Shown here in pieces: positions 15,086-37,897 of a stretch of 52,696 nucleotides of DNA. Every line of letters begins with the position of its first letter. The first letter of the stretch is position 1. The translations under genes were made by a program, and so were the position numbers. This stretch comes from Verrucomicrobiales bacterium (GTDB taxonomy: Bacteria; Verrucomicrobiota; Verrucomicrobiia; Verrucomicrobiales; SLCJ01), in contig JBJTQJ010000037.1 in the NCBI GenBank assembly GCA_046075565.1, positions 1-52,696 on the forward strand, in the 5' to 3' direction. The notes below the pieces were generated by a model, which did not search any database, was not told where the DNA came from, and worked only from the letters and a program-made list of their open reading frames with translations.

Positions 15086-15646
15086 ATGATTGAACCGAAT
15101 CCACCGGATGATTCTCCCGCAGGTCCAATCATCGACCTCAAGAGCGACGAGTTTTTCATGGACATGGCCCTGCGCGAGGCGAGAAAGGCCTATGCCCACG
15201 GCGAGGTGCCCATCGGGGCCGTGATCGTGGACAAGAATTTCCATGTCATCGCCCGGGCATTCAATCAGGTCGAAACACTGAAGGATGCCACCGCCCACGC
15301 GGAGATGCTTGCGCTTACCCAGGCTGAGGCCGCGTTGGGCGATTGGCGGCTCGACGACTGCACGCTCTACGTCACCAAAGAACCATGTCCGATGTGCGCG
15401 GGGGCCATCGTCCACTGCCGACCGGCGCGCGTGGTTTTCGCCCTTCCAGATCCGAAAGGCGGTGCTGCCGGAGGGTGGATCAATTTGCTCGACACACCCA
15501 ATCTCAACCACCGCTGCCCGACCACATCGGGAGTGCGCGAGGATGACGCCCGCGCTCTGATCCAGAGCTTTTTCAGGGAAGCCCGCGAAAAGAAGAAAGC
15601 TGGCGAGGAGAGATACCGGCCGGATGAACGGGAGGCAGAAAGCTAG
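15086..15646 (+). CDS. tadA: tRNA adenosine(34) deaminase
   Basis: GEVPIGAV, TAHAEM, TKEPCPMCAGA zinc motifs. Confidence 0.92.
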   Translation: MIEPNPPDDSPAGPIIDLKSDEFFMDMALREARKAYAHGEVPIGAVIVDKNFHVIARAFNQVETLKDATAHAEMLALTQAEAALGDWRLDDCTLYVTKEPCPMCAGAIVHCRPARVVFALPDPKGGAAGGWINLLDTPNLNHRCPTTSGVREDDARALIQSFFREAREKKKAGEERYRPDEREAES

Positions 15647-17025
15647 CCCGGAAGCATTTTCCCGGGATTGAGGATGCCCTTGGGATCCATGGCATTCTTG
15701 ATGGCGGAGTGCAGGGCGATGGAGGCGGGGCCGAGTGCATCCTCGATCCATTTCAATTTGGCCAAGCCCACTCCGTGTTCGCCAGTGATTGCCCCTTTGT
15801 TCGCGAGCACCCAGCGGAATAACCGGTCCACGGCATCGTCGGCTTTGACCCGTGAATCGGGATTCGCGTAATCGGCGACCATGACATTGGCGTGGATGTT
15901 TCCATCGCCGGCGTGGCCAAAACAAGCAACGGGGATTCCGGTTTCAGTCTCAAGTTCCCGGCAGAAGCGCACCAGTTCGACCAGACGGGAGCGGGGAACC
16001 ACGATATCCTCGTTGAGTTTAGTCATGCCGGTGGCGCGAAGGCCATTGGAGAACTCGCGGCGCAATTTCCAGATCCGTTCGCAGCCGTCCTCGTCGTCGG
16101 CCAGATTGATCGCCATGGCCCCGTGGAAAAGTAGGATTTCCCGCAAGGCGGCGAGTTCCTCGGCCACGGCGGCGGGACGACCATCGGTCTCCACGATCAA
16201 ATGGGCGTCGCCTTCGGGCAGTGAATCGGCTCCGAGCAGGGCGCGGGCGGCGCGCAGGGTAAAGCCGTCGGTGATCTCGAGGGCAGAGGGCAAATGACCG
16301 GCCCCGAGGATGCCCTGGACGCACGCGGCGGCGGATTCAAAATCGGGAAATACGGCCGCGAGCATGCCGCGCGCGGGAGGATGAGGAATCAAGCGCAAGG
16401 TCGCTTCGGTGATCACGCCTAACAAGCCTTCGCTACCAGTAAAAAGTGCCGTCAAATCGAAGCCTGTCTTGTTCTTGTGCACGCGGCCCCCGGTGCGGGT
16501 GACCGTGCCATCGGCGAGCACGACTTCGAGACCAAGAACATAATGCCGCGTGACGCCATATTTCAGGCAACGCGGACCACCGGCATTGGTGGCGATATTA
16601 CCCCCGATGGAGGAGTCTTTTAGCGAGGCCGGGTCGGGAGGATAATACCAGCCCAATTCGCGGGCCGCATCTCCGATGGCCTTGGTGATCACACCCGGTT
16701 GCACTACGGCCGCGCCATCGGCGGGATTGATTTCCAGAATCTTGTTCATTCGGGCCACGGAAAGCACGATGCCGCCCCGGATGGGAACACAACCACCGAC
16801 GTAACCGATACCCGCGCCACGGGTGGTCACGGGCACATTGTTTTGGTTGGCGAAAGCGAGCGTCGCCGAAACATCCTCGGTTGTCTCCACAAAAACCACG
16901 ATCTCAGGCTGCGCGCTCATGTTCCACTTGTCGGTGCCGTGCTCGGCCAGAACGGTCTCGTCACGCGAGACCTTGCCCGTGCCCAACAGTCCTGCCAGCG
17001 AGACAAACATTTCTTCCGTCGTCAT
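15643..17025 (-). CDS. FAD-binding oxidoreductase, GlcD/D-lactate dehydrogenase-like
   Basis: YPPDPAS, GGNIATNAGG..LKYGVT, GSEGLLG, FGHAGDGNIH, ITGEHGVG, DPKGILNPGK. Confidence 0.92.
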   Translation of the reverse strand: MTTEEMFVSLAGLLGTGKVSRDETVLAEHGTDKWNMSAQPEIVVFVETTEDVSATLAFANQNNVPVTTRGAGIGYVGGCVPIRGGIVLSVARMNKILEINPADGAAVVQPGVITKAIGDAARELGWYYPPDPASLKDSSIGGNIATNAGGPRCLKYGVTRHYVLGLEVVLADGTVTRTGGRVHKNKTGFDLTALFTGSEGLLGVITEATLRLIPHPPARGMLAAVFPDFESAAACVQGILGAGHLPSALEITDGFTLRAARALLGADSLPEGDAHLIVETDGRPAAVAEELAALREILLFHGAMAINLADDEDGCERIWKLRREFSNGLRATGMTKLNEDIVVPRSRLVELVRFCRELETETGIPVACFGHAGDGNIHANVMVADYANPDSRVKADDAVDRLFRWVLANKGAITGEHGVGLAKLKWIEDALGPASIALHSAIKNAMDPKGILNPGKMLPG

Positions 17026-17078
17026 ATCCCGGAAGAAAAGCCCGATCCACGTCTCCGCCAAATGGAAAATGCGGGCAT

Positions 17079-18485
17079 CTACTGGCCGCTCGGCTTGGCG
17101 CCTTTTTCCCTGGCTTTATCCAGCGGCCAGTCGGGATGGGAGGTCCGTTCAGAGGCCATATAAGCCACGGCCTTTTTCACGACTTCGGACTGGGATTCGG
17201 ACACATCGTTGGATTCACCGGGATCCTTCTCGAGATCGTAGAGTTCAACCTTGGCGGTCGGTCCGTTTTTGACAGCTTTCCATTTTCCGAAGCGAACGGC
17301 TTGGATCGGTTTGCCCTCGTGGAGTTCCCAATAGAAGACATCACGTTTCGGGGCAGGACCGCCGCGCAGAAATTCGACCAAGGAATGGCCATCGAATTTC
17401 CCTTTTGCCGGTAGCTCCGCGCCGGCCAATTCGGTGGCGGTTGGGAGAAAGTCCCAGAATGCCCATGGGTCATCGCGGGTCACTCCAGCGGGAATGACGC
17501 CCGGCCAGCGGGCCAGAGATGCCTGACGGAGCGCTCCCTCGTAAAGGCTACGTTTGAATCCCCTTAGGCCATTCGATGCCTGATTGAAGAGTTTCCCAAA
17601 TTCCGAATCCGGAGAGTAGGACGAGCCATTGTCGCCGGAGATCATGACCAGAGTGCGGTCATCGATGCCGAGTTCTTTTAGCAAATCGAGAAGTCGTCCG
17701 ACATCGGTGTCGAGTCTCGTTACCATGGCGGCATAGGTCTTTTGTCCATTGGTCCATGGCTTGTCCTTGTAAATCCCGAGATCGTCGATCTCGTTGCGGG
17801 CGTGCGGCAAAGTGATGGCGTAATACAGGAAAAACGGCTTGTCTTTCTGCTGGCGCACCCAGGCGAGGGTCTCGTCGGCGATGAGATTCTGGGCGTAGGT
17901 TTTGCCGATGCCTTTGCCATCATTTCCTGGCAGTTCGACTTTCTCCTCGTTCCGATAGAGGTGGGTTGGAAAATACGAGTGGGCATGGCGCTGGCAGTTG
18001 TATCCGAAGAAGAAGTCAAAGCCCTGCTTGAGGGGACTGCCGGTTGTATCAAACATGCCCATGCCCCACTTGCCGGTGCAGGCGGTGGCGTAGCCTTGTT
18101 TTTTGAGGATTTCCGAAACGAGAATCTGATTCTCCGGTAGTGGATACTGGCCCTCACCGGAAGCGATTTCCCAATTGGCACGGATTGGTGAATGCCCGCT
18201 GTGTTGTCCGGTCATGAGTGAGGCTCGGCTGGGAGCACACACGGTCGTTCCACAATAGGCCTCTGTGAACTTCATGCCTTCGGCGGCCATCCGGTCCAAG
18301 CGCGGGGTTTTGATCAACTTCTGTCCGTAACAGCCGAGGTCGCCCTGTGCGAGGTCGTCGCTGAGGATGAAGATGATATTCGGCTTCTGTGGTAGCGGGG
18401 GAGCGGCAGGCAATTGCGTGATGATGGCCAATCCACAGATGGCCGTTATCCATGGGAGGGGCGCGAATCGGAGCATCGAAGTCAT
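17079..18485 (-). CDS. Arylsulfatase (S1 family)
   Basis: [21 protein letters not shown] formylglycine motif, GKWG, DNG, ELYDL..DPGE. Confidence 0.94.
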
Positions 18486-19823: not shown

Positions 19824-21230
19824 ATGCAAGGATCACGACAAAAAATCCAAATTCGCCTGCTCCAAGTCGTTGACGGCCTGCTGGTTCTCCTTGCGTTCTG
19901 GGCATCCCGGGTCATTCGTGACTATCTTGGTGCCCAGGGGTATTTGCCTTTCAATGGCACTCTCGGTGCGGACCTCGCCGATATTGCCTGGATTTTGGCC
20001 ATTGTCGTGCCGCTCAGCCCTCTTGTTCTGCAACGTTACGGCTTCTACGACTATCCCTTGGAGAAACGGCGCTGGGATTCTTTGCGCCAGATGTTCCAGA
20101 CCATGTTGGTCCTGACGGTTTTGGTCGCCATGGGTGTGGTGTTCGCTCGTTTTGCTCCGTCCAGCCGGCTTACCTTGGCAGGGGCCGTGCCGTTGGGGGT
20201 GACATTCCTGCTTCTGCGGGAACGAGCAACCCGCTGGTATCTGCGCCGCTATCTCTTGGCCGAAGGAAAACTGGAGACCGTAATCTTCGCGGGCAATCTC
20301 GATGACATCGCGGCGATGAAGAACAAACTGTCTCCGGGTGTGCTTTCCGCCTGGCGGGTGGTGGAAGTCTTCGACTTGCAGTTGCGCGACCTCGGGGAAT
20401 TACCGGATATCCTGCACCAGCACAATGTCGGACGCGTGATTTTCGCCGCCGGGCATACCTCCTTCGACAAGGTGCAAGAAGCCGTCCAGACCTGCGAGGT
20501 CGAGGGGGTCGAATCGTGGATTTACGCGAATTTCCTCAAGACAAGTGTCGCGCGCCCGACTTTTGACTTTCTGGGCAACCAACCCATGCTCGTTTTCCGC
20601 ACGACCCCGGAGGTTTCCTGGTCGATGCTCGGCAAAGAGGTTTTTGATCGCACGGCGGCGTTTGTCGCCCTGGTGATCTTCGCCATCCCGATGTTGGTTA
20701 TCGCCGGTTTGATCAAATGCATGAGTCCCGGACCGGCCATTTTCAAACAAGCCCGCAGTGGACGGCACGGCAAACCCTTCACCATGCTGAAGTTCCGCTC
20801 CATGCACAACAATGCCGAGCAACAACTTGCCGAGATCAAGGCCATGACCGGCAATGAAATGAGCGGCCCCGTTTTCAAATTGGAAAAAGATCCCCGGGTT
20901 TTTCCCTTCGGCCGTTGGTTGCGAAAGCTAAGTCTGGACGAACTACCCCAGTTCATCAACGTGCTCATGGGCGATATGAGTATCGTCGGTCCGCGCCCTC
21001 TCCCCACCTACGAGGTGGACGAATTCACCGACTTCTCCCACCGTCGCCGTTTGAGTGTGAAACCGGGCCTGACTTGCCTTTGGCAGGTGAGCGGACGCAA
21101 TTCCATTACCCGCTTCGAGGATTGGATTAAACTCGATCTTGAATACATCGACAATTGGTCGCTCGGGCTTGATTTCCTCATCCTGCTCAAGACGATTCCG
21201 GTGGTGCTCCTGGGCAAGGGGGCGAAGTGA
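19824..21230 (+). CDS. Polyprenyl glycosylphosphotransferase (priming sugar transferase, WcaJ/WbaP-like)
   Basis: N-terminal TMs; KFRSM, DPRVFPFGRWLRKLSLDELPQFINVLMGDMSIVGPRP, KPGLT..QVSGR, DLEYIDNWS. Confidence 0.95.
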   Translation: MQGSRQKIQIRLLQVVDGLLVLLAFWASRVIRDYLGAQGYLPFNGTLGADLADIAWILAIVVPLSPLVLQRYGFYDYPLEKRRWDSLRQMFQTMLVLTVLVAMGVVFARFAPSSRLTLAGAVPLGVTFLLLRERATRWYLRRYLLAEGKLETVIFAGNLDDIAAMKNKLSPGVLSAWRVVEVFDLQLRDLGELPDILHQHNVGRVIFAAGHTSFDKVQEAVQTCEVEGVESWIYANFLKTSVARPTFDFLGNQPMLVFRTTPEVSWSMLGKEVFDRTAAFVALVIFAIPMLVIAGLIKCMSPGPAIFKQARSGRHGKPFTMLKFRSMHNNAEQQLAEIKAMTGNEMSGPVFKLEKDPRVFPFGRWLRKLSLDELPQFINVLMGDMSIVGPRPLPTYEVDEFTDFSHRRRLSVKPGLTCLWQVSGRNSITRFEDWIKLDLEYIDNWSLGLDFLILLKTIPVVLLGKGAK

Positions 21231-22446
21231 TTTTGCCATGCTTTTTCGGCTGACCGTTGCGCCATTTTCTCCACATCGCCACCATCAGGAGCCCGCACCC
21301 GATGCCGAGCGCGTTGACGGCAAGGTCTTCCATGTCCTCCCCTTCAAACCCGAAGCCGAAAGCTGTCTGCATTGCCTCCGAGCTGATGCCCAATATCGCC
21401 ACGGGAATCCAGCCTCGGGTTGAATGGAAAATGGCCACAAACGCGAGCGTCAGGGCGACAAATGTGCCCAGGTGCATCAGGCCCCTGGCTTTCTCTTTCG
21501 CCCAGCGGTAGGTCTCCCAGAACCAACCATCTTTGACTGCTGCGGGCACGGGCAAGTTGACGGCGGGAACGGGCGATGCCGCAACGGGAGTGTTCGGAGC
21601 GGATGGGCTTTCTGCCGTCGGTTCTCCGATTGAACTTGCCGGCTTTGTCGCCAACGCTGAGGTGTGGTCGATGGCAAAGGGACCGCCCAGTGGCCGCAAC
21701 GGTTCCCACGGTCCAGGTAGCACCAAGGCCCAAAATACGACTAGTGCCAGTGTGGCCGCCCCCAAGGGCCGCCGGATCCCTGATTGCCCAATGAGTAGGC
21801 GGAAGAGAAACGTCCACCAGACACCAACTCCCATCAACAATCCCGCCGTGGCCCACGGCACCCACGTCCTCATTGTCACCGGGCAAATCTCCAGGCTATG
21901 GAGGACGATTTCGCCCGATTTTCCAGCTTGTTGGAGGAATATCGAGGCCTCGCCCGGTTCATTCAAGACCGCTAGGAATTCATTTTCAAAGGTCCCGCTT
22001 CCGTAGGCGAACAACAACCCGTAGTGCTTTTCGCGGAGTATCCCTTTTTCGTCTCTCCAGATGACCATGATGCGCGCGCTTTGCCATATTTCGTCGCCGG
22101 GGACGATTTCCTTGGCTACGCCCCGGAACCGGATATGCGCCGCCGAGCCCTCGGGCCAGCCTTGCAGGGGAATTTCGTAGCTGGGCGAGGGGAGGCCTTG
22201 ATCGGCTCGAAGCGTCAGTGTCCCTGCGGACCCGTCCCAATCGACTGATTCCGCTCTCATGAGGGGCCGACCCGGGGGCTGGGGCCCCGGGTCGAGAGTG
22301 ATACGCGAGACCTTTTCAGAAACCGCCCAGGCATTTTTCCACAACCATCCGACGGCCACGACCAACAGGACGAGGAGACAGAGATGAAGCAGGAGCCGGA
22401 CAGGTCGCACGGGCGGGGAGATAACCCCGACTGCCCCGGAAATCAA
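21187..22446 (-). CDS. Membrane protein with C-terminal VanZ-like domain (start uncertain, possibly GTG 22410)
   Basis: C-terminal MHLGTF..SEAMQ..DLAVNALG pattern typical of VanZ; N-terminal TM plus soluble domain. Confidence 0.65.
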   Translation of the reverse strand: MISGAVGVISPPVRPVRLLLHLCLLVLLVVAVGWLWKNAWAVSEKVSRITLDPGPQPPGRPLMRAESVDWDGSAGTLTLRADQGLPSPSYEIPLQGWPEGSAAHIRFRGVAKEIVPGDEIWQSARIMVIWRDEKGILREKHYGLLFAYGSGTFENEFLAVLNEPGEASIFLQQAGKSGEIVLHSLEICPVTMRTWVPWATAGLLMGVGVWWTFLFRLLIGQSGIRRPLGAATLALVVFWALVLPGPWEPLRPLGGPFAIDHTSALATKPASSIGEPTAESPSAPNTPVAASPVPAVNLPVPAAVKDGWFWETYRWAKEKARGLMHLGTFVALTLAFVAIFHSTRGWIPVAILGISSEAMQTAFGFGFEGEDMEDLAVNALGIGCGLLMVAMWRKWRNGQPKKHGKITSPPCPGAPPESS

Positions 22447-22514
22447 CTCCCTCCCATCCGTTCTTGCGGAATGAGGTGGTCGACGTTACAGGTTGGTTCC
22501 AATTTCAAGCACCC

Positions 22515-23510
22515 ATGTCCACTGGCCTGACCTACAAAGAATCCGGAGTTGATATCAAAGAAGCCGCCGCCCTCGTGGGCGATATCGGGGAACTCCGCCG
22601 GCGGACGGAAAAAAACCGCAAATTGCACCAGGCTTTCGGTCTTTTCGCGGCCAGCTACGACCTCAGCGCTTACAAGGAACCCGTGATTGTCACCGGATGT
22701 GATGGCGTAGGCACAAAAATGGAACTCTGCCTCGAACACGATCAACTTGAAACGGCCGGCAAGGACCTCGTTGCCATGAACGTGAACGACATCCTGACCA
22801 CCGGTGGTGACCCCTTGCTTTTCCTCGACTACATCGGCATCGGACGTATCGACAAAACCCGCATCGCCCGCCTCATCGCGGGTATGGTCGAATGGCTCGA
22901 GGATTGCAATTGTATCCTCGCCGGTGGTGAAACCGCGGAGATGCCCGGCATCGTGCCTGATGGAGTGATTGAGTTGAGTGGATTCTGTATCGGCGCTGCG
23001 GAAAAACCCGACCTGCTCGACCCGGAAACCGTCGCACCCGGAGATGCCGTCATCGGCTACCCGTCGAATGGATTCCACGCCAATGGTTGGTCACTCGTGC
23101 GGCGTGTGCTCGCGTCTTTCCCCGATGACTTCACCAAGCAGGAAATTGTCTCCCTGCTCACACCCACGCGGCTTTACCATGATGTCACCGGCGACCTGCG
23201 CAAAGCCGGACTTCGTCCGAAAGCCATGGCCCACATCACCGGAGGCGGTTTGGTCGAGAATCTCGAACGTTTCCTCGGCGAAAAAGGTGCCGACCTGCTC
23301 ATTCCGAAAGTGGAGGATCCGGTCATCCAAAAAGTGCTCGCCCGCGTGGATCAGCATGACCGATTCGATACTTTCAACATGGGCATCGGATGGGTCGTGA
23401 TCTGCGATCCCGCCTGCGAAGCCGACGCCCTCAAGGCCGGCCCCGGTGGCAAGCGCATCGGCACCATTCGGGCCGGTCGCGGCATCAAAGTCGCGGTCGA
23501 AGGAGAGTGA
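22515..23510 (+). CDS. purM: Phosphoribosylformylglycinamidine cyclo-ligase
   Basis: TYKESGVD, DGVGTK, DLVAMNVND, GGETAEMPG, HITGGG, TFNMGIG. Confidence 0.97.
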   Translation: MSTGLTYKESGVDIKEAAALVGDIGELRRRTEKNRKLHQAFGLFAASYDLSAYKEPVIVTGCDGVGTKMELCLEHDQLETAGKDLVAMNVNDILTTGGDPLLFLDYIGIGRIDKTRIARLIAGMVEWLEDCNCILAGGETAEMPGIVPDGVIELSGFCIGAAEKPDLLDPETVAPGDAVIGYPSNGFHANGWSLVRRVLASFPDDFTKQEIVSLLTPTRLYHDVTGDLRKAGLRPKAMAHITGGGLVENLERFLGEKGADLLIPKVEDPVIQKVLARVDQHDRFDTFNMGIGWVVICDPACEADALKAGPGGKRIGTIRAGRGIKVAVEGE

Positions 23511-23519
23511 GCCTGCCAC

Positions 23520-24269
23520 TCACGCTGGTTTGACGATGTAGTCGCCCTTGTCGTTGGTGATTTGGGGCAGGCGTTTTGTCTCTTCGAAAAGCCGCCACGC
23601 GGGTTCGAGCTGTTGCCAGAATGCGAGATGCGCGGCTTCTTCCGCGCTTTTCTCGGCCTTTGTCATCCGGCTTGGCTTCATACGGAAGGGGAAACAATGG
23701 ATGGGCACCTCGGTTTGGCCTTGCGCGATGGCCATGGAGACGAGCGTATAGATTTCCTCGATCACGGGATCGGTCATGGCATAACAACCGATCGAGTAAA
23801 CCGAGCCATGCACCATGATTAGATTGCCGGTCAAGTTGAGGGCCCGGTCGCGGGCGTTCGGATAGTTGATATCAAAGGAAAGATGGAAACGCGATTCCGG
23901 ATTGAGGCTGTCGCGATTGGTATAGTAAAATCCCTCCGGAGTCTGGCCGTCGCCCATTTCCTTCTTCGGACCGAGTTTGCCCGACCAGCGCGCGATTTTC
24001 CATTCCTTGAAAAGTTTCCACTCCTCGGATGTTGGCGGTCTCATCCACAATTCCATCTCCGAAGATTCCTTGAAAAACCGCAAATGCACCGGCTCACCGG
24101 GAGCGAGTCCCTTTTTCGCCAGATCTTCCCGCAATTTCGGAAGGATACGCTTCACTACCGCAATGGCGCGGGCATGGTTTTTCTTGCGAGGGGAGGGGCC
24201 CGCTCCCTCCGCGCAACTGGAGAGGGCGGCATTGGCGGCGGCAAGGGAGAGAAAATCGCGGCGGCGCAT
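23520..24269 (-). CDS. Murein L,D-transpeptidase family protein (YafK/DpaA-like), Tat lipoprotein
   Basis: MRRRDFL..LSSC; GPKKEMGDGQTPEGFY, LNPESRFHLSFDINYPN, IMVHG..SIGCYAM. Confidence 0.9.
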   Translation of the reverse strand: MRRRDFLSLAAANAALSSCAEGAGPSPRKKNHARAIAVVKRILPKLREDLAKKGLAPGEPVHLRFFKESSEMELWMRPPTSEEWKLFKEWKIARWSGKLGPKKEMGDGQTPEGFYYTNRDSLNPESRFHLSFDINYPNARDRALNLTGNLIMVHGSVYSIGCYAMTDPVIEEIYTLVSMAIAQGQTEVPIHCFPFRMKPSRMTKAEKSAEEAAHLAFWQQLEPAWRLFEETKRLPQITNDKGDYIVKPA

Positions 24270-24363
24270 CGTGGAGGGGAATCTGGCGGAAAGGTTCCAC
24301 GACCCGCGGTCGGAAGCAAGGCTCATCCGGCGTTGGGAAATGCGAAATTTCCGCAGCTTTGTC

Positions 24364-24392
24364 TTGCCAGTTCAGCGCGGATGGGGCAGTAT
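24364..24392 (+). promoter_or_regulatory. Candidate sigma70-type promoter for the 6S RNA
   Basis: TTGCCA-N17-CAGTAT just upstream of the RNA. Confidence 0.4.
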
Positions 24393-24399
24393 CGTGGCT

Positions 24400-24592
24400 G
24401 TGCTTCGGCACCCTACCTGCGGTGTTCGCGACTTCGTGGGACACAAAGGCCCGGACCGTTATATCCATTACGGGAGGCACCTCCATTCCTTTGACGCCAG
24501 GCCTTCACTGGACGGCGGAAACCATGGAAATTGGAAGCCTCCCACCTACGGAGCTCTAGGGAACGTGAGCCAATCGCCCACCGGCGGCATTG
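24400..24592 (+). ncRNA. ssrS: Probable 6S RNA
   Basis: About 190 nt non-coding; closing stem CCUGCGGUG.UUCGCG / CGUGAG..CACCGGCGG; central bubble CCCGGACCGUUAUAUCCAUUAC; apical stem GGGAGGC/GCCUCCC then CACCU..AGGG as in known 6S RNAs; terminator follows; ends approximate. Confidence 0.75.
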
Positions 24593-24597
24593 CGGGG

Positions 24598-24627
24598 CCG
24601 CTCCGGATTCTTCCGGAGCGGTTTTTT
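24598..24627 (+). terminator. Intrinsic terminator
   Basis: CCGCTCCGGA-TTCT-TCCGGAGCGG hairpin followed by TTTTTT. Confidence 0.85.
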
Positions 24628-24645
24628 CGTTTCCGGGCATGTCCA

Positions 24646-24720
24646 TCAACCCTTCGGGAGCAAAGCCAGAAGTTCCTCGTGTGGACGCGCGATCACATGG
24701 GCGGCGATCAATCCCGGTTT
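24646..24720 (-). pseudogene. 3' remnant of a BMC hexamer shell protein gene (PduA/EutM-like)
   Basis: Translates to ..GLIAAHVIARPHEELLALLPKG*, matching the BMC-H C-terminal HVIPRPH..(L)LPKG motif; not in the ORF track. Confidence 0.65.
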
Positions 24721-25322
24721 GGTCGCTCCTTCGGCCCAGGTGACATTCAAATCGGCGAAGGTTCCTTGTTTGACCATGGCGTAGAACATGAATCCCGGAA
24801 CAACGAAGAGGAAAACGGGGAGAATCTTAATTGGCGCTGCAAACAGCGGACCAACCCGGGCGTGGTTTTATCCTTTGCTCCAAGCACCCGCTGCACAATG
24901 GTCTGGTCGGCGCACCAATACCAGATGCCGAGCACGGGGTAGCCGAGGAAAATCGCATACCACGGCATCCCGCTGGCGTCACCGCTGGGACGGAGCATCG
25001 AGAGCATGTTCTTTTCAGCAGGCATCTGCAAAGCAGCGACGAGGTGCGACCATCCGCCAGCCACTCCCTGGTCGCCGCCGAGCACCTTGAAGGAAAACCA
25101 TGTAATCAGCGCCGCGCCCAACAAAAGCACCACCGTTTCCACCCTTTCCGTAAAAACCACCGCCATGAGCCCGCCCACCACCACATAGAGCGCCGTCCCG
25201 ACCGCGATCACGACGATGCTGACCCATGGATTGACGCCGAAGAGCCCGCTCAGCACGATGGCACCGGTAAGAAGCGAAAATCCGATGTGGATGATGATCG
25301 CGGAAATCACCGAAAAGACCGC
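24721..25322 (-). pseudogene. Internal fragment of a sodium:solute symporter (SSS) with a frameshift near 24869
   Basis: GGLMAVVFTE, PWYAIFLG..IWYWCADQTIVQRVLGAKD, then shifted frame NHARVGPLFAAPIKILPVFLFVVPG. Confidence 0.85.
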
Positions 25323-26156
25323 GAGGATGTCATCCGGATGTGTGGGTTCCTCAATCCAGAGCAAATTGAACTCGGCTGACCTGCGTCCAAACTCGAGAGA
25401 GCGCTCTAGTGTCCATTGCTGGTTGCAGTCCACCATCACGGTGGCGTCCGCACCCGCGCCCTCGCGCACGAGGGCGGTCCGGCGCAGATCCACCTCCATG
25501 TCCGGTGCTCCGACCTTGAGTTTCATGGCCGTGAATCCGGCGTCCACCGAGGCGCGCACGTTCTCTCGGATCTGCCCGTCGGTGTAGTTGAACCAGCCAA
25601 TGGAGGTATCGTAACCCGGATAGCCGGTCTTGAGAATGCCCTCGCGATCCTTGCGGAAACTGCGTTCGTTTTCTATAAGTGTGGCCGCGTCAACGAGGGA
25701 GAGTTCGTCCTCCACGTAGCTGAAATCCATGGTGGCGAGGAGCGCTTTTGTTTCCAAATCGAGAAGGAGTTGCCAGAGCGGGACACCTCGTTTTTTCGCC
25801 CAGAGATCCCAGCAGGCATTGGTCACGGATGCGAGGGCGAGATGAACCAAGCCTTTGTGCGGACCGGGCCACCGGTATTGCTGTTCGTTGGCCATCGCGC
25901 GCTGAATGTTCCCGAAATCGGCCATGATTTCCTCGATGTCCCGCCCCTGCAGCCGTTGGGCGAGGAAGAGCGCGGCCTCGCAAACCAGATTGTTCCCGGC
26001 TCCCAGGGTGAAGGCCCAACCGCTGCCACAATGTCCCGAGCTGTCTTGCAGCAGGGTGACGGCATACGAATACTTTGGATCCTTGTGGATGGCGTCCGAG
26101 CCGGCCTGGGTGCCGATGTCATACCTGAGATCGCGAGTGCGGATGGACGTGATCAT
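25323..26156 (-). pseudogene. 5' portion (~278 codons) of L-fuconate dehydratase-like enolase-superfamily enzyme, fused in frame to the SSS fragment
   Basis: GSDAIHKDPKYSYA, WPGPHKGLVHLA, NACWDLWAK, YDTSIGW, KLKVG, VDCNQQW, WIEEPTHPDDIL, then abrupt switch to TM sequence. Confidence 0.85.
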
Positions 26157-26192
26157 CGGCGGTGGAAAATGGGAAAGGGGCGTGGGGGCAAT

Positions 26193-26957
26193 CTATCGCC
26201 GGTAGCCGATTTCCGCTCCGCCGCTCACATGGAGAATGTGACCGGTGATGAAGCGGGCCATATCGGAAAGCAGGAAAACACAAGGGTCGGCAATGGCGTC
26301 GCCTTCCGGACACGGCCCAAGCGGGTGGATGTCATCGAGATACTGCTCGATGCCCGATGGGTCATCCTGGTCGCGGCACCATTCGCGCAGCATGGGGGTC
26401 CATGAGCCGGCTGGGCAAACTGCGTTCACGCGAATGCCGTCGGCGGCATAATCCAAGGCCATGGATTTCGTGAGAGTGTTCATCGCCCCTTTCGTCGCCG
26501 TGTAGGCGGCATGGTTCGCTTGCCCTATCACACCGACGAGGCTGGATGTGTTTAAAATGCTGCCGCGGTTTTTCTTGAGGGCGGCAAAAGCATGGGTCGT
26601 CGTATGCAGGACGGACCGTAGATTGATAGCGAAAAGTTTTTCCCATTCCTTCGCGCTCGTCTCGTGCAGTGGTTTGCTCGGGCTGGCAGTGCCTGCGTTG
26701 TTATGCACCGCGTCGATGCGGCCGAAGGTGTCCAGCACTTTCGCCATGGCCGCCGCCACTTCGTCTTCGATCGCCACATCACACGGGATGCCGAGATGGA
26801 GCGGACCGAGTTGCTTAACAGCGGCCGCCACCTTGTCGGCTGAACGGGCGAGGATGGCTACCCGCGCTCCATGGTGATGGTAGGCCTTGGCGCATTCCTA
26901 GCCAATGCCCTCGGAGCCGCCCGTGAGAACGATGATTTTGTTTTCCAGCAGTCCCAT
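26193..26957 (-). pseudogene. SDR oxidoreductase (L-fucose dehydrogenase/HSD17B14-like) with in-frame TAG at 26898-26900
   Basis: MGLLENKIIVLTGGSEGIG*ECAKAY is in frame with the tracked ORF; NNAG, SSLVG.IGQA, YTATK, SGGAEIGY. Confidence 0.85.
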
Positions 26958-27023
26958 GGTAACGACCCTACCAGTTCCTTTGCCCGCCGCCTTCCGCAAG
27001 CGGGAATTCCGCCCCCGTGAGCG

Positions 27024-28214
27024 TCACTTGGCGAAGGCTTTCTCGATTTCAGCAAGGCTTACCCCCAGAGTCTTGCGGGCGATGGGGTCGAGCGCCTCCT
27101 TTGGACCGGTGAAATGAAGGGTCGTCTGCCGGTGCTCGTGCGAGGCTCCCGGCGCGAGGGCGAGCGCGGGGCTGGAGGTTTCGAGTTCAAAAAATGGCCC
27201 CAGAGGCTTCGCACCCGGCTCGGGCGGTCCGTCGTTGTAGGCATTGATCACATCGCCCGCGTAAGGGTCTCCATTTTCCTTCCATTGCGAATCGACGTAA
27301 GGAAGTGAACTCGCGTCGGCGGGCATTGCAGTGTGCACGAGCGTTAGGACTCCGATGTCCGATTGCCAGCATCCGCTGAAAGGCAGGGCGAGCGAGGGCG
27401 GAACTCCAAGTTTGCCCCGCGCCTTGCCATCGCCCTTGAAGAAAAGATGGTCTCCTTTGACGATGGCGCGGTCCGGGGGAATCTGCCCGAAACCAGTGTA
27501 GTTCGTGTTGGGAGCCCCGCTGCCGCCGGATTTTAGAGGTAGCACGAGAATGCTACCCTCCGAAGGCGGGAACATGCCGAGCATCCAGATGGAAATGAGC
27601 CCGCTTTCTTTTTTCCAAGCCGCCTCGCCGGTATTCGTCACCCGGTTTTCCGTCCGATAGGCGACGGCACCAATCTCCGCGCCGGGTGAAATGCCGAGCG
27701 TTTTCTCGATTTCTTCCTTGTCGAGGATTTTCACCTCGCGTCGGATGGCGAAGGAAAAGGATGAGCCGGCGCGGTTGGAAAGGCGGGCGGTATGAGTGAA
27801 AACAGCGGAGGACTCGGAGGAGACCTCGACGGAGAACGGTTCGGTGTCGATCAAGGCGGGGGTCTTCCAATGGGCGAACTCTTGCGGCACGCCCGGCGGG
27901 AAAAACAAGGAATACGGTCCACCCTCCGGTCCGAACCAGAGGCGCTCTTCACCACCAAAGACATGGATGTGTTTCGCCAGTCCTTCCCGCTTGGCTTCGG
28001 GTTGAATCCCAGCGGCGATGTTTTCCCGGTGCAACCATCCCAGCGAGCGGCCCTTTTCCGCATCCGTGGTGCTCGTCATCACCCGGCCTTGCCAGTCCGG
28101 AACCACGGCCACCCTGGCCGCGCCCGATTTCAACTCAACGACCTTGACATGTTTGCGCAAATACTCGAGGTCTTCGGAATACTGGACGATGGGTGGTGGG
28201 GTATCGGCTGCCAT
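27024..28214 (-). CDS. DUF6786-like protein
   Basis: VAVVPDWQGRVMTST, GGEERLWFGPEGG.YS.FF, SIWMLGMF, YNDGP..GPFFELETSSPA. Confidence 0.75.
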   Translation of the reverse strand: MAADTPPPIVQYSEDLEYLRKHVKVVELKSGAARVAVVPDWQGRVMTSTTDAEKGRSLGWLHRENIAAGIQPEAKREGLAKHIHVFGGEERLWFGPEGGPYSLFFPPGVPQEFAHWKTPALIDTEPFSVEVSSESSAVFTHTARLSNRAGSSFSFAIRREVKILDKEEIEKTLGISPGAEIGAVAYRTENRVTNTGEAAWKKESGLISIWMLGMFPPSEGSILVLPLKSGGSGAPNTNYTGFGQIPPDRAIVKGDHLFFKGDGKARGKLGVPPSLALPFSGCWQSDIGVLTLVHTAMPADASSLPYVDSQWKENGDPYAGDVINAYNDGPPEPGAKPLGPFFELETSSPALALAPGASHEHRQTTLHFTGPKEALDPIARKTLGVSLAEIEKAFAK

Positions 28215-28326
28215 GAGCTTTTCATAGTCAATGCGGAGCGGTTTGGCAAGCCGAACTATCGGGTGTCGTCATTTTCCAAACCCATCCCACGTGGATGTGC
28301 GGGTTAGGTCCGGCGAGACCGGCTTT

Positions 28327-29304
28327 TCAAGCATTCCCGGCAAAGAACCGTTTCTTCAGCCAAAAAGAGACATGGACGAGTCCGATGAGGGCCGGGACTT
28401 CGACAAGCGGGCCGACCTCTGCCGCGAAGGCCACACTGGCCGTGCGCGGGTAGTCCGCGCCGAGTTTGGCGGCCATGAGGAAACTCACCAGGAACATCAC
28501 GGCAAAGTAGATGAGTAGCGGAATGGCGATCCGCAGCACGTCCATGGGCAGTTCGACAATGGCATCGCCTTTGTAGGTGAACATCACGACAATGGTGAAA
28601 AGCAAAGCCACCAACGTGAGCGGCGAGATCCGTGGGATAAATTTCTTCTCATACCATTCGACGCCTTTCATGCGGACGAGTGCCGATCTCGTGATCATGC
28701 CGGCGAAAAAGGGGATGCCGAGATAGATCATCACGGAAATGGAAATATCCTTCATCGCAATTTCGACCACCACGCCCTTGAGTCCGACCAGCGGGGGCAG
28801 CACGGTGATGAACAACCACGCGTAGGCGCTGTAGAAAAGGATTTGTGCGATGCTGTTCAAGGCGACCAGCCCGGCGGCATATTCCGGCGAACCTTTGGCC
28901 AGATCATTCCACACGAGCACCATCGCGATGCAGCGGGCGAGTCCAACCAGAATCAACCCGACCATGTAATCGGGTTGGTCGCGCAGCAAGAGCACCGCCA
29001 GCACCCACATGATGACCGGACCGATGATCCAGTTTTGCACTAGCGAAAATCCTAGGATACGCGGGTTGGCGAAGACACGCGGCAATTCGCCATAACGCAC
29101 TTTTGCCAATGGAGGATACATCATCACGATCAGACCGATGGCCAGGGGGACATTGGTTGGGCCGATGGTGAATGGCGCAAAGAAGGCCTCCGGATCATCA
29201 ATGACGAATCGTCCGATCAGGATTCCCACGGCCATGCCGGCGAAGATCCAGACCGTGAGGTAACGGTCGAGAAAGGACATCCGGGCGGCGATGTGTTCCG
29301 TCAT
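28327..29304 (-). pseudogene. acr3: ACR3 arsenite efflux transporter with probable internal in-frame deletion
   Basis: [44 protein letters not shown] present; NNFELAIAVA segment absent between SVAF and AAEVGP. Confidence 0.8.
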
Positions 29305-29316
29305 GGTTGTTACGAT

Positions 29317-29736
29317 TCAGCGTTGATCGAGTCGCCCGTCGGCGTAAGCGGTGAAGACGCGGTAGATTTCATCCCGCACCCGGCGGAAGACGATCATTTG
29401 TTCCTCCTCGCTGCCAGTGGCGTGCGCTGGGTCGTCGAAGGGGTAATGATGGCGGTTCATTTGACCGGGAAAGACCGGGCAGACCTGGTCGGCATTGCCA
29501 CAAACCGTGATCACGGTTTCGACCTCGCGGGTGAGGAAGGTGTCGAGGTGTTTCGACTCGTGGGTGGAGATATCGATGCCGATTTCTGCGAGCGCCCTGA
29601 TGGCCAGCGGGTGGACATAACCCGCGGGTTTCGAGCCGGCCGATGTAACTTCGAAATCCGGGCCCAGGGCTTTTTGCAGAATGCCTTCCGCCATGTGGGA
29701 TCGGCAGGAATTTCCAGTGCAGAGAATGAGGATCAT
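29317..29736 (-). CDS. arsC: Arsenate reductase, LMW-PTP type
   Basis: CTGNSCRS P-loop, [20 protein letters not shown]; inside ars operon. Confidence 0.9.
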
Positions 29737-29774
29737 GTGGACGAGCAGGGTGGGGCAGCGGGTGGTGTTCCAGA

Positions 29775-30248
29775 TCAGCAGCAACCGGAATCAGGGCGGC
29801 AGGCTGATTCCCCGGGGATACTGGGCAGCGAGAAATCGGGCAGGCAAATCTCCTTGGCCAGGCAGTCGGTGTGTTTGAATGCGGTATGGAAAACAAGGGT
29901 GCCATCCACAACCTCGCAGTGAGTGAGGCGAAGTTAGGTGAGAACCGGTGCCTCCACTTCGATTGCCACGGGCAGGTCGAGATTCGGCAAAAGACCGTCT
30001 GCACGCCCGAAAATGGTTGGGAGTTTACTTGCCTTGAGACGATGATGCATGTCATCCGCAACCCAAGCCTGGAGAACACAGGAATCCATGGTGTGGCGTT
30101 TGACTCCGCAGTCGATGAAAGATTTCGCCACGTAACCCACTTCGGTGATATGGAAATGTGCGGGCACGCGCGAGCCATCCGGTATCGCGAAACTCAAGAG
30201 ATGGTTGGGATGGGATTGGAGATGTTTGAGGGTTTCGCGAGTGGTCAT
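29775..30248 (-). pseudogene. DUF6428-like protein with premature TAA at 29934-29936
   Basis: VPAHFHITEVG..FIDCG; frame continues after TAA with [19 protein letters not shown]. Confidence 0.8.
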
Positions 30249-37015: not shown

Positions 37016-37897
37016 TCAAAGGACACCCGCCTCTGTAAGGATCCCCCGCAAGGTGGCGCGTTTGGCGTCGTCGAGCGGCAGCAGGGGTAGACGCAATTCG
37101 TCGCCGGGAATGATTCCGGCCATGGCGAGCGCGGCCTTGATGGGCGCGGGATTCACGTCCAGCGAGAGCATGCCTTTGAAAAGCGGATAGTATCGGTAGT
37201 GGGCAGCGCGCCCGGCAGCGAGGTCGCCGGCCAGCATGGCATTGACCAGCGAGGCGACACCGGCAGGGATGAGGTTCGAGGCCACGGAAACGACCCCAAC
37301 CGCACCGGAAGCCATGAAGGGCAGGGTGAGGGAATCATCGCCGGACAAGATGGTGAAATCATCCGGCAGGACGGCGCGGAGTTGGTGCACACGTTCGACA
37401 TTTCCCCCTGCTTCCTTGATCGACCGGATATTCGGGCAGGCTTCCGCGAGCCGGGCGACCGTTTCGACCGCGATCTCAATCACACAACGTCCCGGGATCG
37501 AATAAAGCATGACCGGCAGCGACGTTGATGCCGCGATGGCTTGGAAGTGACGGAAGACTCCCTCCTGGTTCGGCTTGTTATAGTAGGGCGCGACCACCAG
37601 CACACTGTCGGCGCCGAGTTCCTCGGCTTTTCGGGTGGCTTCGATGGCTTCGGCAGTGGAATTTGATCCCGTGCCGGCCATCACCTTGCCGCGCCCACCC
37701 GCGAACTCGACGGCGAGGCGGATCAACTCGAAGTGTTCGTCATAAGAGACCGTCGGGCTTTCTCCCGTCGTGCCCACCGGCACGATACCGGTGATGCCGC
37801 CTGCGAACTGGCTATCGATGAGCTTGCGGTAAGCCTCGCGGTCGATGGCGTCGTCGCGGAACGGAGTAACAAGTGCGGTGTAGGTGCCGGAAATCAT
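37016..37897 (-). CDS. dapA: 4-hydroxy-tetrahydrodipicolinate synthase
   Basis: ALVTPF, GTTGESPT, APYYNKP, LYSIPGR, IKEA, LSGDD. Confidence 0.96.
   Translation of the reverse strand: MISGTYTALVTPFRDDAIDREAYRKLIDSQFAGGITGIVPVGTTGESPTVSYDEHFELIRLAVEFAGGRGKVMAGTGSNSTAEAIEATRKAEELGADSVLVVAPYYNKPNQEGVFRHFQAIAASTSLPVMLYSIPGRCVIEIAVETVARLAEACPNIRSIKEAGGNVERVHQLRAVLPDDFTILSGDDSLTLPFMASGAVGVVSVASNLIPAGVASLVNAMLAGDLAAGRAAHYRYYPLFKGMLSLDVNPAPIKAALAMAGIIPGDELRLPLLPLDDAKRATLRGILTEAGVL

Follow-up and report, generated by a model that had tools for sequence, protein, structure and literature searches.

We asked why, on the minus strand of the 52,696-nucleotide stretch of DNA analysed here (the window), a fragment of an SSS symporter gene should run in frame into what reads as the last residues of a bacterial microcompartment (BMC) shell protein, and which events may have brought the two together. 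The window comes from a freshwater metagenome-assembled draft genome of 129 contigs, 100% complete by marker genes.

The symporter fragment ends in the tail of a shell protein

On the minus strand, the symporter fragment continues in frame into LIAAHVIARPHEELLALLPK, followed by a glycine and a stop codon (24646-24711). The peptide obtained by minus-strand translation of 24646-24900 ends in KPGLIAAHVIARPHEELLALLPKG and a TGA stop, exactly as the initial annotation had transcribed it, and the open reading frame (ORF) to which the tail belongs is 47 aa long (24646-24789, minus strand).

The initial annotation had taken this tail for the C-terminus of a PF00936 shell protein. Results agreed with this reading, as all 20 of the 20 tail residues are identical to the C-termini of tandem-domain PF00936 shell proteins of about 206 aa. 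When the 47-aa ORF was compared with longer proteins, 11 proteins among 51 candidates matched at E <= 10, every one of them carrying PF00936, and six of the 11 were 100% identical to the query across the final ~20 residues. Eight of these matches were inspected in full and all eight had the C-terminus IAAHVIARPHEELLALLPK; six are 205-207 aa long, and two, with the same tail, measure 88 and 92 aa. We also built a profile of the tandem-domain protein (BMC-T) from 74 of the best 80 loci found in relatives, omitting six because the match started after residue 4 or the stop was not found. Among 102,854 six-frame stop-to-stop peptides of the genome, this profile recovered the tail at E 4.1e-6, its positions 184-204 (the last 21) aligning on peptide residues 52-72. 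Genome-wide, three intact shell genes of another contig, C20, ranked above the tail (E 1e-28 to 1e-30), and the next match below it had an E of 1.7. C20 came up again when the 24-aa peptide was searched against the genome by tblastn, where, the self match aside, C-termini of its BMC-H proteins ranked first (E 0.024 and 0.086).

At the DNA level, 56 nt of the tail align with the 3' ends of BMC-T genes at up to 86% identity. This similarity runs from the Leu/Ile codons at 24708-24711 to 24652, where the relatives have their stop codon. The pattern H-(V/I)-(I/V)-x-R-P was present in the tails of 65 of the best 80 BMC-T loci, which are identical to the window at 13-19 of 20 residues, and the remaining 15 tails lack the search pattern, mostly through a changed His.

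Peptide searches divided on the initial reading: the protein search upheld it, with PF00936 in 11 of 11 matches, but none of the peptides of 24, 47 and 73 aa matched any Pfam family at E <= 10, and a PF00936 search of the whole genome gave no match on the window's contig. Only about 11 residues of the PF00936 domain are left in the tail, a remnant too short for the domain model, so that the blindness of Pfam BMC to it is not evidence against homology. The tail scores below the PF00936 gathering threshold, and its homology is seen at the C-terminus. No intact gene for a hexamer or trimer subunit is present here, the frame upstream of L53 being symporter. As the initial annotation had stated, PF00936 and BMC-T profile searches of the genome found no other BMC trace in the window. 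Judged by its sequence, the tail is the relic 3' end of a BMC shell gene, and the resemblance is not due to chance. The relic is functionless now; once the right family was found, a remnant of 60 nt could be assigned with confidence. A contig of another sample of the same study (X2) differs from the window at 24655 and 24721, in or adjoining the relic; both changes read as synonymous and are too few for an assessment of selection.

In relatives, the shell gene closes a deoxy-sugar operon

In a scan with one genome per species, relatives of the 206-aa protein turned out to be encoded in 462 stretches, and the best 80 loci are nearly all from Verrucomicrobiota metagenome-assembled genomes (MAGs). 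BMC-T contigs labelled as Bifidobacteriaceae, Bacteroidetes, Dongiaceae, Omnitrophota and Hydrogenedentota MAGs were also encountered, probably through binning or labelling errors. In two Opitutales MAGs (loci L104 and L120), the intact order is SDR, dehydratase, SSS symporter, Amidohydro_2, DHDPS and BMC-T, based on ORFs for both loci and on Pfam assignments for L120. Intact loci with SDR, dehydratase and symporter therefore do carry a shell gene downstream, as expected under the initial annotation. The relatives' protein is about 206 aa long, with two PF00936 stretches in L120, and 74 of the best 80 loci match the profile from residue 4 or earlier; this tandem architecture is seen in the relatives and unreadable from the window. 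Among solved structures, its second domain matches PduA-type BMC-H, and the two domains together match PduT or a synthetic tandem fusion.

Two parts of the initial annotation did not survive this comparison. The lost gene had been called a BMC-H, and its relatives are tandem-domain BMC-T of ~206 aa. It had also been placed in a microcompartment operon with EutN-type neighbours, and in relatives BMC-T is encoded alone, not within a shell operon: of the 76 loci among the best 80 with at least 1100 nt of flank, 69 have the end of a DHDPS-family gene no more than 300 nt upstream and on the strand of BMC-T. We replaced a BMC-H closing a microcompartment operon by a satellite BMC-T closing a deoxy-sugar operon, the putative substrate of which is assigned by family.

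At the identity thresholds used, orthologs were present at the best 80 BMC-T loci as follows: DHDPS at 74, Amidohydro_2 at 24, and SDR, dehydratase and symporter at 15 each. With the window fragments as queries, at least one SDR, dehydratase or SSS ortholog flanks 18 of the best 80 loci, always on the strand of the shell gene. When the search was anchored on the dehydratase, BMC-T was found at 5 of 65 metagenome loci, and none was detected by tblastn at L133 and L134, two metagenome loci where the five genes stand in the same order. Given this low count and the endings of L133 and L134, the shell gene is an optional ending of the operon. In both loci the DHDPS keeps a helix-like tail, and the ~1.1 kb past it is without an ORF of at least 90 aa. 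The module looks damaged in two other loci also: upstream of BMC-T in L114, just 0.39 of the amidohydrolase query and 0.30 of the DHDPS query are matched, and in L104 the amidohydrolase ORF has 172 aa against 287 expected.

Anatomy of the broken operon

Compared with these loci, the window at 24646-26999 (minus strand) is very probably the wreck of a six-gene deoxy-sugar operon that is intact in other Verrucomicrobiota. The features are, in the order of the operon:

26196-26948, minus strand: SDR gene, full length, with an in-frame TGA at 26898-26900 (Pfam adh_short, E 4.7e-40)
25323-26156, minus strand: fragment of a fuconate-type dehydratase (enolase superfamily), residues 1-280 of ~408 (Pfam MR_MLE_C, E 3.9e-24)
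25323-25331, minus strand: junction 1, shared codons D-I-L, end point of a ~0.8 kb deletion (parent gene comparison)
24867-25331, minus strand: SSS symporter fragment 1, corresponding to residues 145-299 of 592 of the L120 symporter (79% identical to L104 and L120)
24866-24869, minus strand: -1 frameshift site in an A run within the symporter (one base short against five orthologs)
24712-24867, minus strand: SSS symporter fragment 2, in the frame after the frameshift, corresponding to residues 300-339 of the L120 symporter (81-88% identical to L095, L104 and L120)
24646-24711, minus strand: 3' end of the BMC-T shell gene, codons L53-K72, an extra Gly codon and TGA at 24646-24648 (C-terminal identity, profile, DNA similarity)
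24594-24625, plus strand: strong 14-bp hairpin with a trailing T run, located 21 nt past the relic's stop; its orientation suits plus-strand transcripts (no plus-strand gene recognised upstream)

The fragments map in operon order and on the same strand (SDR 3-253, dehydratase 1-280, SSS 145-339, then the BMC-T C-terminus); their identities, this order and the positions of the junctions are direct observations. The SDR aligns with that of L120 in a single 251-aa tblastn alignment (residues 3-253, 68.5% identical), its in-frame TGA lying directly after the GGSEGIG nucleotide-binding motif. The dehydratase fragment is 66-67% identical to L104 and L120 and 73% to the closest genomic match, G234; its match to MR_MLE_C covers profile positions 2-87 of 219, which leaves the barrel domain incomplete. 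Together with the symporter it forms a 469-aa ORF (24747-26156, minus strand), an in-frame chimera of the N-terminal part of the dehydratase and the middle part of the symporter. Automatic annotation would probably call this ORF a protein; our comparison corrects it to a dehydratase-symporter chimera, not an intact gene. Within it, Pfam SSF was matched with an E of 2e-18 at profile positions 87-232 of 406, and what the window holds of the SSF domain (PF00474) is a fragment with a frameshifted continuation.

At junction 1, the dehydratase of L104 and L120 reads PDDILGH, their symporter RDILAGF, and the window PDDILAVF. The dehydratase and symporter tblastn alignments overlap at exactly the 9 nt of the junction, and D-I-L, common to both parents, is the signature of a short-homology deletion. 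Arithmetic on the coordinates gives 814-817 nt for this first deletion. At the frameshift site, five orthologs have GAT/GAC GAG AAC CA(C/T) where the window has GATAAAACCAC, with one base missing. Past it the symporter continues for 52-53 residues to KPG(L); the remainder of fragment 2, up to KPG, is alignable only to the closer orthologs L068 and L095. K50, P51 and G52 of the peptide (24712-24720) are still symporter and the shell part starts at L53 or I54, so that the symporter ends in KPG(L), the shell protein begins with (L)IAAH, and the parents share at most the Leu codon.

The second deletion runs from the symporter to the shell-gene tail and amounts to ~2.9 kb with L104 as reference and 3.2 kb with L120. 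Lost with it were the amidohydrolase and the aldolase, together with the C-terminal 240 residues of the symporter on one side and the first ~186 of the shell protein on the other; the last 20 shell-gene codons with the stop region survive because the deletion ended just inside the gene. The local alignment with BMC-T spans residues 155-205, the two being truly alike only in the last 20. The initial proposal that the tail belonged to the last gene of a former operon, joined to the symporter by a large deletion, is therefore upheld, with ~2.9-3.2 kb missing relative to L104 and L120.

The operon would thus have suffered four lesions: a nonsense codon early in the SDR; a ~0.8 kb deletion between DIL stretches, fusing dehydratase codon 280 to symporter codon ~148; a -1 frameshift within the A run of the symporter; and a ~3 kb deletion from symporter codon ~352 to BMC-T codon ~187, with which nine tenths of the shell gene would have gone. 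The two deletions alone suffice to kill the operon, and neither the SDR stop nor the frameshift is needed for this.

Past the tail, the stretch 24327-24645 does not resemble what follows BMC-T genes, either as DNA or in translation, and none of its ORFs matches a Pfam family. No plus-strand gene was recognised upstream of the hairpin at 24594-24625, which may be the remnant terminator of a convergent gene. The 267 nt between the hairpin and the YkuD gene (24327-24593) are gene-less and match nothing; L120 has a convergent IclR regulator at the position equivalent to the window's hairpin.

The genome keeps its main microcompartment locus

We also looked for what the rest of the genome retains. 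By Pfam, a main locus of the PVM (Planctomycetes-Verrucomicrobia) type is complete outside the window on a different contig (C20:289-7715), in the order DeoR regulator, PduL, two BMC-H, acetate kinase, BMC-H, BMC-P, aldehyde dehydrogenase, two BMC-P and class II aldolase. All parts by which we recognised such a locus (class II aldolase, aldehyde dehydrogenase, PduL, BMC-H, BMC-P, DeoR and acetate kinase) are present on C20, and loss of the organelle from the genome is ruled out by this complete locus. In the rest of the genome we found no other dehydratase of the relic's type and no tandem BMC-T, and no Amidohydro_2 match of at least 60 bits occurs in the genome. Its sole DHDPS-family match lies in the window (37100-37894, minus strand), is 27% identical to the module's aldolase and is presumably the housekeeping DapA. 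As the main locus is intact and no second copy of the module is present, the organelle was kept and only the satellite module lost. C20 also encodes, at 15572-17383, an intact 603-aa SSS symporter, 29% identical to that of L120 and ~8 kb from the main microcompartment locus.

BMC matches occur in 21 of 301 genomes of the order (this genome counted), and three genomes, all of one genus, have a full-length tandem BMC-T, each on top of three main-locus genes. In three family-level relatives neither the dehydratase nor a tandem BMC-T was found. A metagenome scan with the dehydratase fragment gave no near-identical intact allele (best matches 69-71% identical), and the genomes yielded no close relative in which the operon is intact, their best dehydratase match being 73% identical; the ancestral state is therefore deduced from distant relatives. 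A DNA search with the 2.8 kb region against 40 relatives returned only short matches within the SDR and the dehydratase, and no synteny. For the flanking DUF6786 and YkuD genes, matches in the three family relatives lie on different or short contigs.

Alternative explanations of the locus

The tail could in principle be the normal continuation of the symporter, cut by a stop and resembling a shell protein by chance. SSS proteins do have an LLPxG motif of their own slightly further on, and tblastn of the 73-aa piece against the ortholog in another genome (G297) aligned all 73 residues, pairing LLPKG with LLPTG over a 7-residue gap. The closer orthologs L068 and L095 (64-81% identical) decide the matter: they match through WAEGAS(K/V)PGL and then diverge, L068 having ~27 unrelated residues before LLPSG, whereas the window carries HVIARPHEELLALLPK after KPGL. 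HVIARPH is absent from all symporter orthologs compared. Since the orthologs read otherwise after KPGL, the tail is not symporter sequence, and with 20 of 20 residues shared with BMC C-termini, a genome-wide profile E of 4e-6 and a DNA similarity that begins exactly at the Leu/Ile codons, we give this reading practically no probability. The joints might instead be artefacts of assembly or binning that connect pieces of different molecules, the real genes being intact. In favour of this, the genome is a draft assembled from metagenome data into 129 contigs, and the SDR nonsense codon and the symporter frameshift are seen in a single contig, that of the probable source sample, so that either could be a sequencing or assembly error. 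This contig, 7.3 kb long, covers 24200-27100 entirely. Junction 2 is also crossed by independent contigs from two other samples of the study, X2 over 24610-24830 with two differences from the window and X4 over 24465-24790 with none, and thus occurs in three samples. Outside the source sample, junction 1 is covered by a single X2 contig (25026-25357), which reaches 26-34 letters past the junction against a required minimum of 31. No joints or loose ends are reported for the stretch, the homology shared at the junctions (<= 9 nt) is too short for joining by a k-mer assembler, and all fragments retain the order and strand of the intact operon. An artefact is therefore very improbable.

A further possibility is that already broken foreign DNA, or a small patch with the end of a shell gene, was acquired by transfer or illegitimate recombination. 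The absence of the dehydratase and of tandem BMC-T from the three family relatives, the presence of a full-length tandem BMC-T in just three of the 301 genomes of the order, and the scatter of the fragments' best matches over Opitutales and Akkermansiaceae-type MAGs would be in agreement with it. The four fragments are nevertheless collinear with the intact operon, for which internal deletions are the simplest explanation, and no mobile-element gene was seen when the ORF list of 20000-30000 was read by eye; we consider acquisition in this form very unlikely, if a little less so than an artefact. Taken together, the locus is very probably a dead deoxy-sugar operon with a satellite BMC-T tail, damaged by deletions in place while the organelle was kept, which we hold to be the best explanation. 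We infer that these deletions occurred in this lineage. As a feature alone, it is an ordinary pseudogene relic that changes no concept; it also provides a junction-level record of a catabolic operon dismantled by short-homology deletions, with the organelle it served retained.

The aldolase beside BMC-T suggests a plug-in module

The DHDPS-family aldolase was removed together with most of the shell gene. In relatives, the 70 DHDPS-family proteins adjoining BMC-T are 325-352 aa long, and in L120 Pfam DHDPS ends near residue 278. In the extension beyond it (L045-L124), a variable Ala/Pro/Ser-rich linker is followed by an amphipathic helix, h-h-x-x-h-h-x-x-h. This helix pattern falls within the last 32 residues of 63 of the 70 proteins, versus 87 of 935 in a control set of ORFs, drawn from the same loci with a minimum length of 250 aa and including the DHDPS genes themselves and spurious ORFs. 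A linker and a C-terminal amphipathic helix are the architecture of microcompartment encapsulation peptides, and by its sequence the helix of the DHDPS-family proteins looks like a putative peptide of this kind.

The intact module would then supply the PVM-type microcompartment with a lactaldehyde-releasing aldolase of L-2-keto-3-deoxyfuconate (L-KDF) type and with a shell tile of its own. We lean, by a small degree, towards the view that the relic records the recent loss of such a plug-in of the PVM organelle. In many Verrucomicrobiota, an L-KDF-type aldolase with an encapsulation-type helix would be co-transcribed with a BMC-T tile, so that lactaldehyde of the non-phosphorylating fucose or rhamnose route would be released inside the microcompartment. 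If true, this genome would be a natural knock-out, left with the shell and with the phosphorylating entry alone. The tightly conserved pair of DHDPS-family aldolase and tandem BMC-T (69 of 76 loci) links a non-phosphorylating deoxy-sugar route to microcompartments. Our literature search found no paper describing a module of DHDPS aldolase and BMC-T, and the searchable text of published BMC catalogues does not mention a DHDPS partner. The supplements of Sutter et al. 2021, in the portions available as text, contain no DHDPS or PF00701 term; their locus diagrams may show such satellites.

Comparison with known systems

With the BMC-H proteins of the PduA/EutM type, the relic's family shares its C-terminal motif of strand and tail: the C-terminus of PduA (3ngk_A, ...hviprphtdvekilpk) aligns with the ...hviarpheellallpk end of the family, so that the PduA comparison made in the initial annotation holds. 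Unlike them, the family has two PF00936 domains in ~206 aa, and the window keeps the last 20 residues and no gene. Closer in architecture are the tandem BMC-T of the PduT kind, which form single-layer trimers, as both have two non-permuted BMC domains in one chain. Matches covering both domains of the family were the PduT chains 3vcd and 3n79 and the synthetic BMC-H tandem fusion 6ner_A (E 2e-45). The family differs from PduT in that, by eye, no conserved cysteine for a pore iron-sulfur cluster is present in eight of its sequences. It also differs from the BMC-T(SE) modules, which, in the accessible portion of PMC11626177, stand beside an MNdh gene; the gene of the relic's family does not.

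Satellite EUT modules, consisting of EutABC and an EutL-type BMC-T, are described as plug-ins in the available text of Sutter et al. 2021 (PMC8217296). The operon discussed here resembles these modules, as far as that text describes them, in having a shell tile away from the main locus and beside an aldehyde-releasing enzyme, with a complete main locus also in the genome. It departs from them in its partner, a DHDPS-family aldolase in a non-phosphorylating deoxy-sugar operon, and in that the window's module is dead. Regarding the enzymes, the non-phosphorylating L-fucose route 1, according to the accessible part of PMC11199699, proceeds through the dehydrogenase FucA, the lactonase FucB, the dehydratase FucC and the L-KDF aldolase FucH to pyruvate and L-lactaldehyde. 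Judging from their Pfam classes, the genes of the relatives' operon (SDR, Amidohydro_2, enolase-superfamily dehydratase and DHDPS-family aldolase) would correspond to this route as outlined there, to which the operon adds a shell gene and the C-terminal helix of the aldolase.

Finally, the PVM microcompartment serves L-fucose and L-rhamnose according to the available text of Axen 2014 (PMC4207490). The C20 parts match the list given in that text (class II aldolase, aldehyde dehydrogenase, PduL, acetate kinase, DeoR, three BMC-H and three BMC-P). The relic differs from this system in that it came from a separate satellite locus, the C20 main locus lying outside the window.
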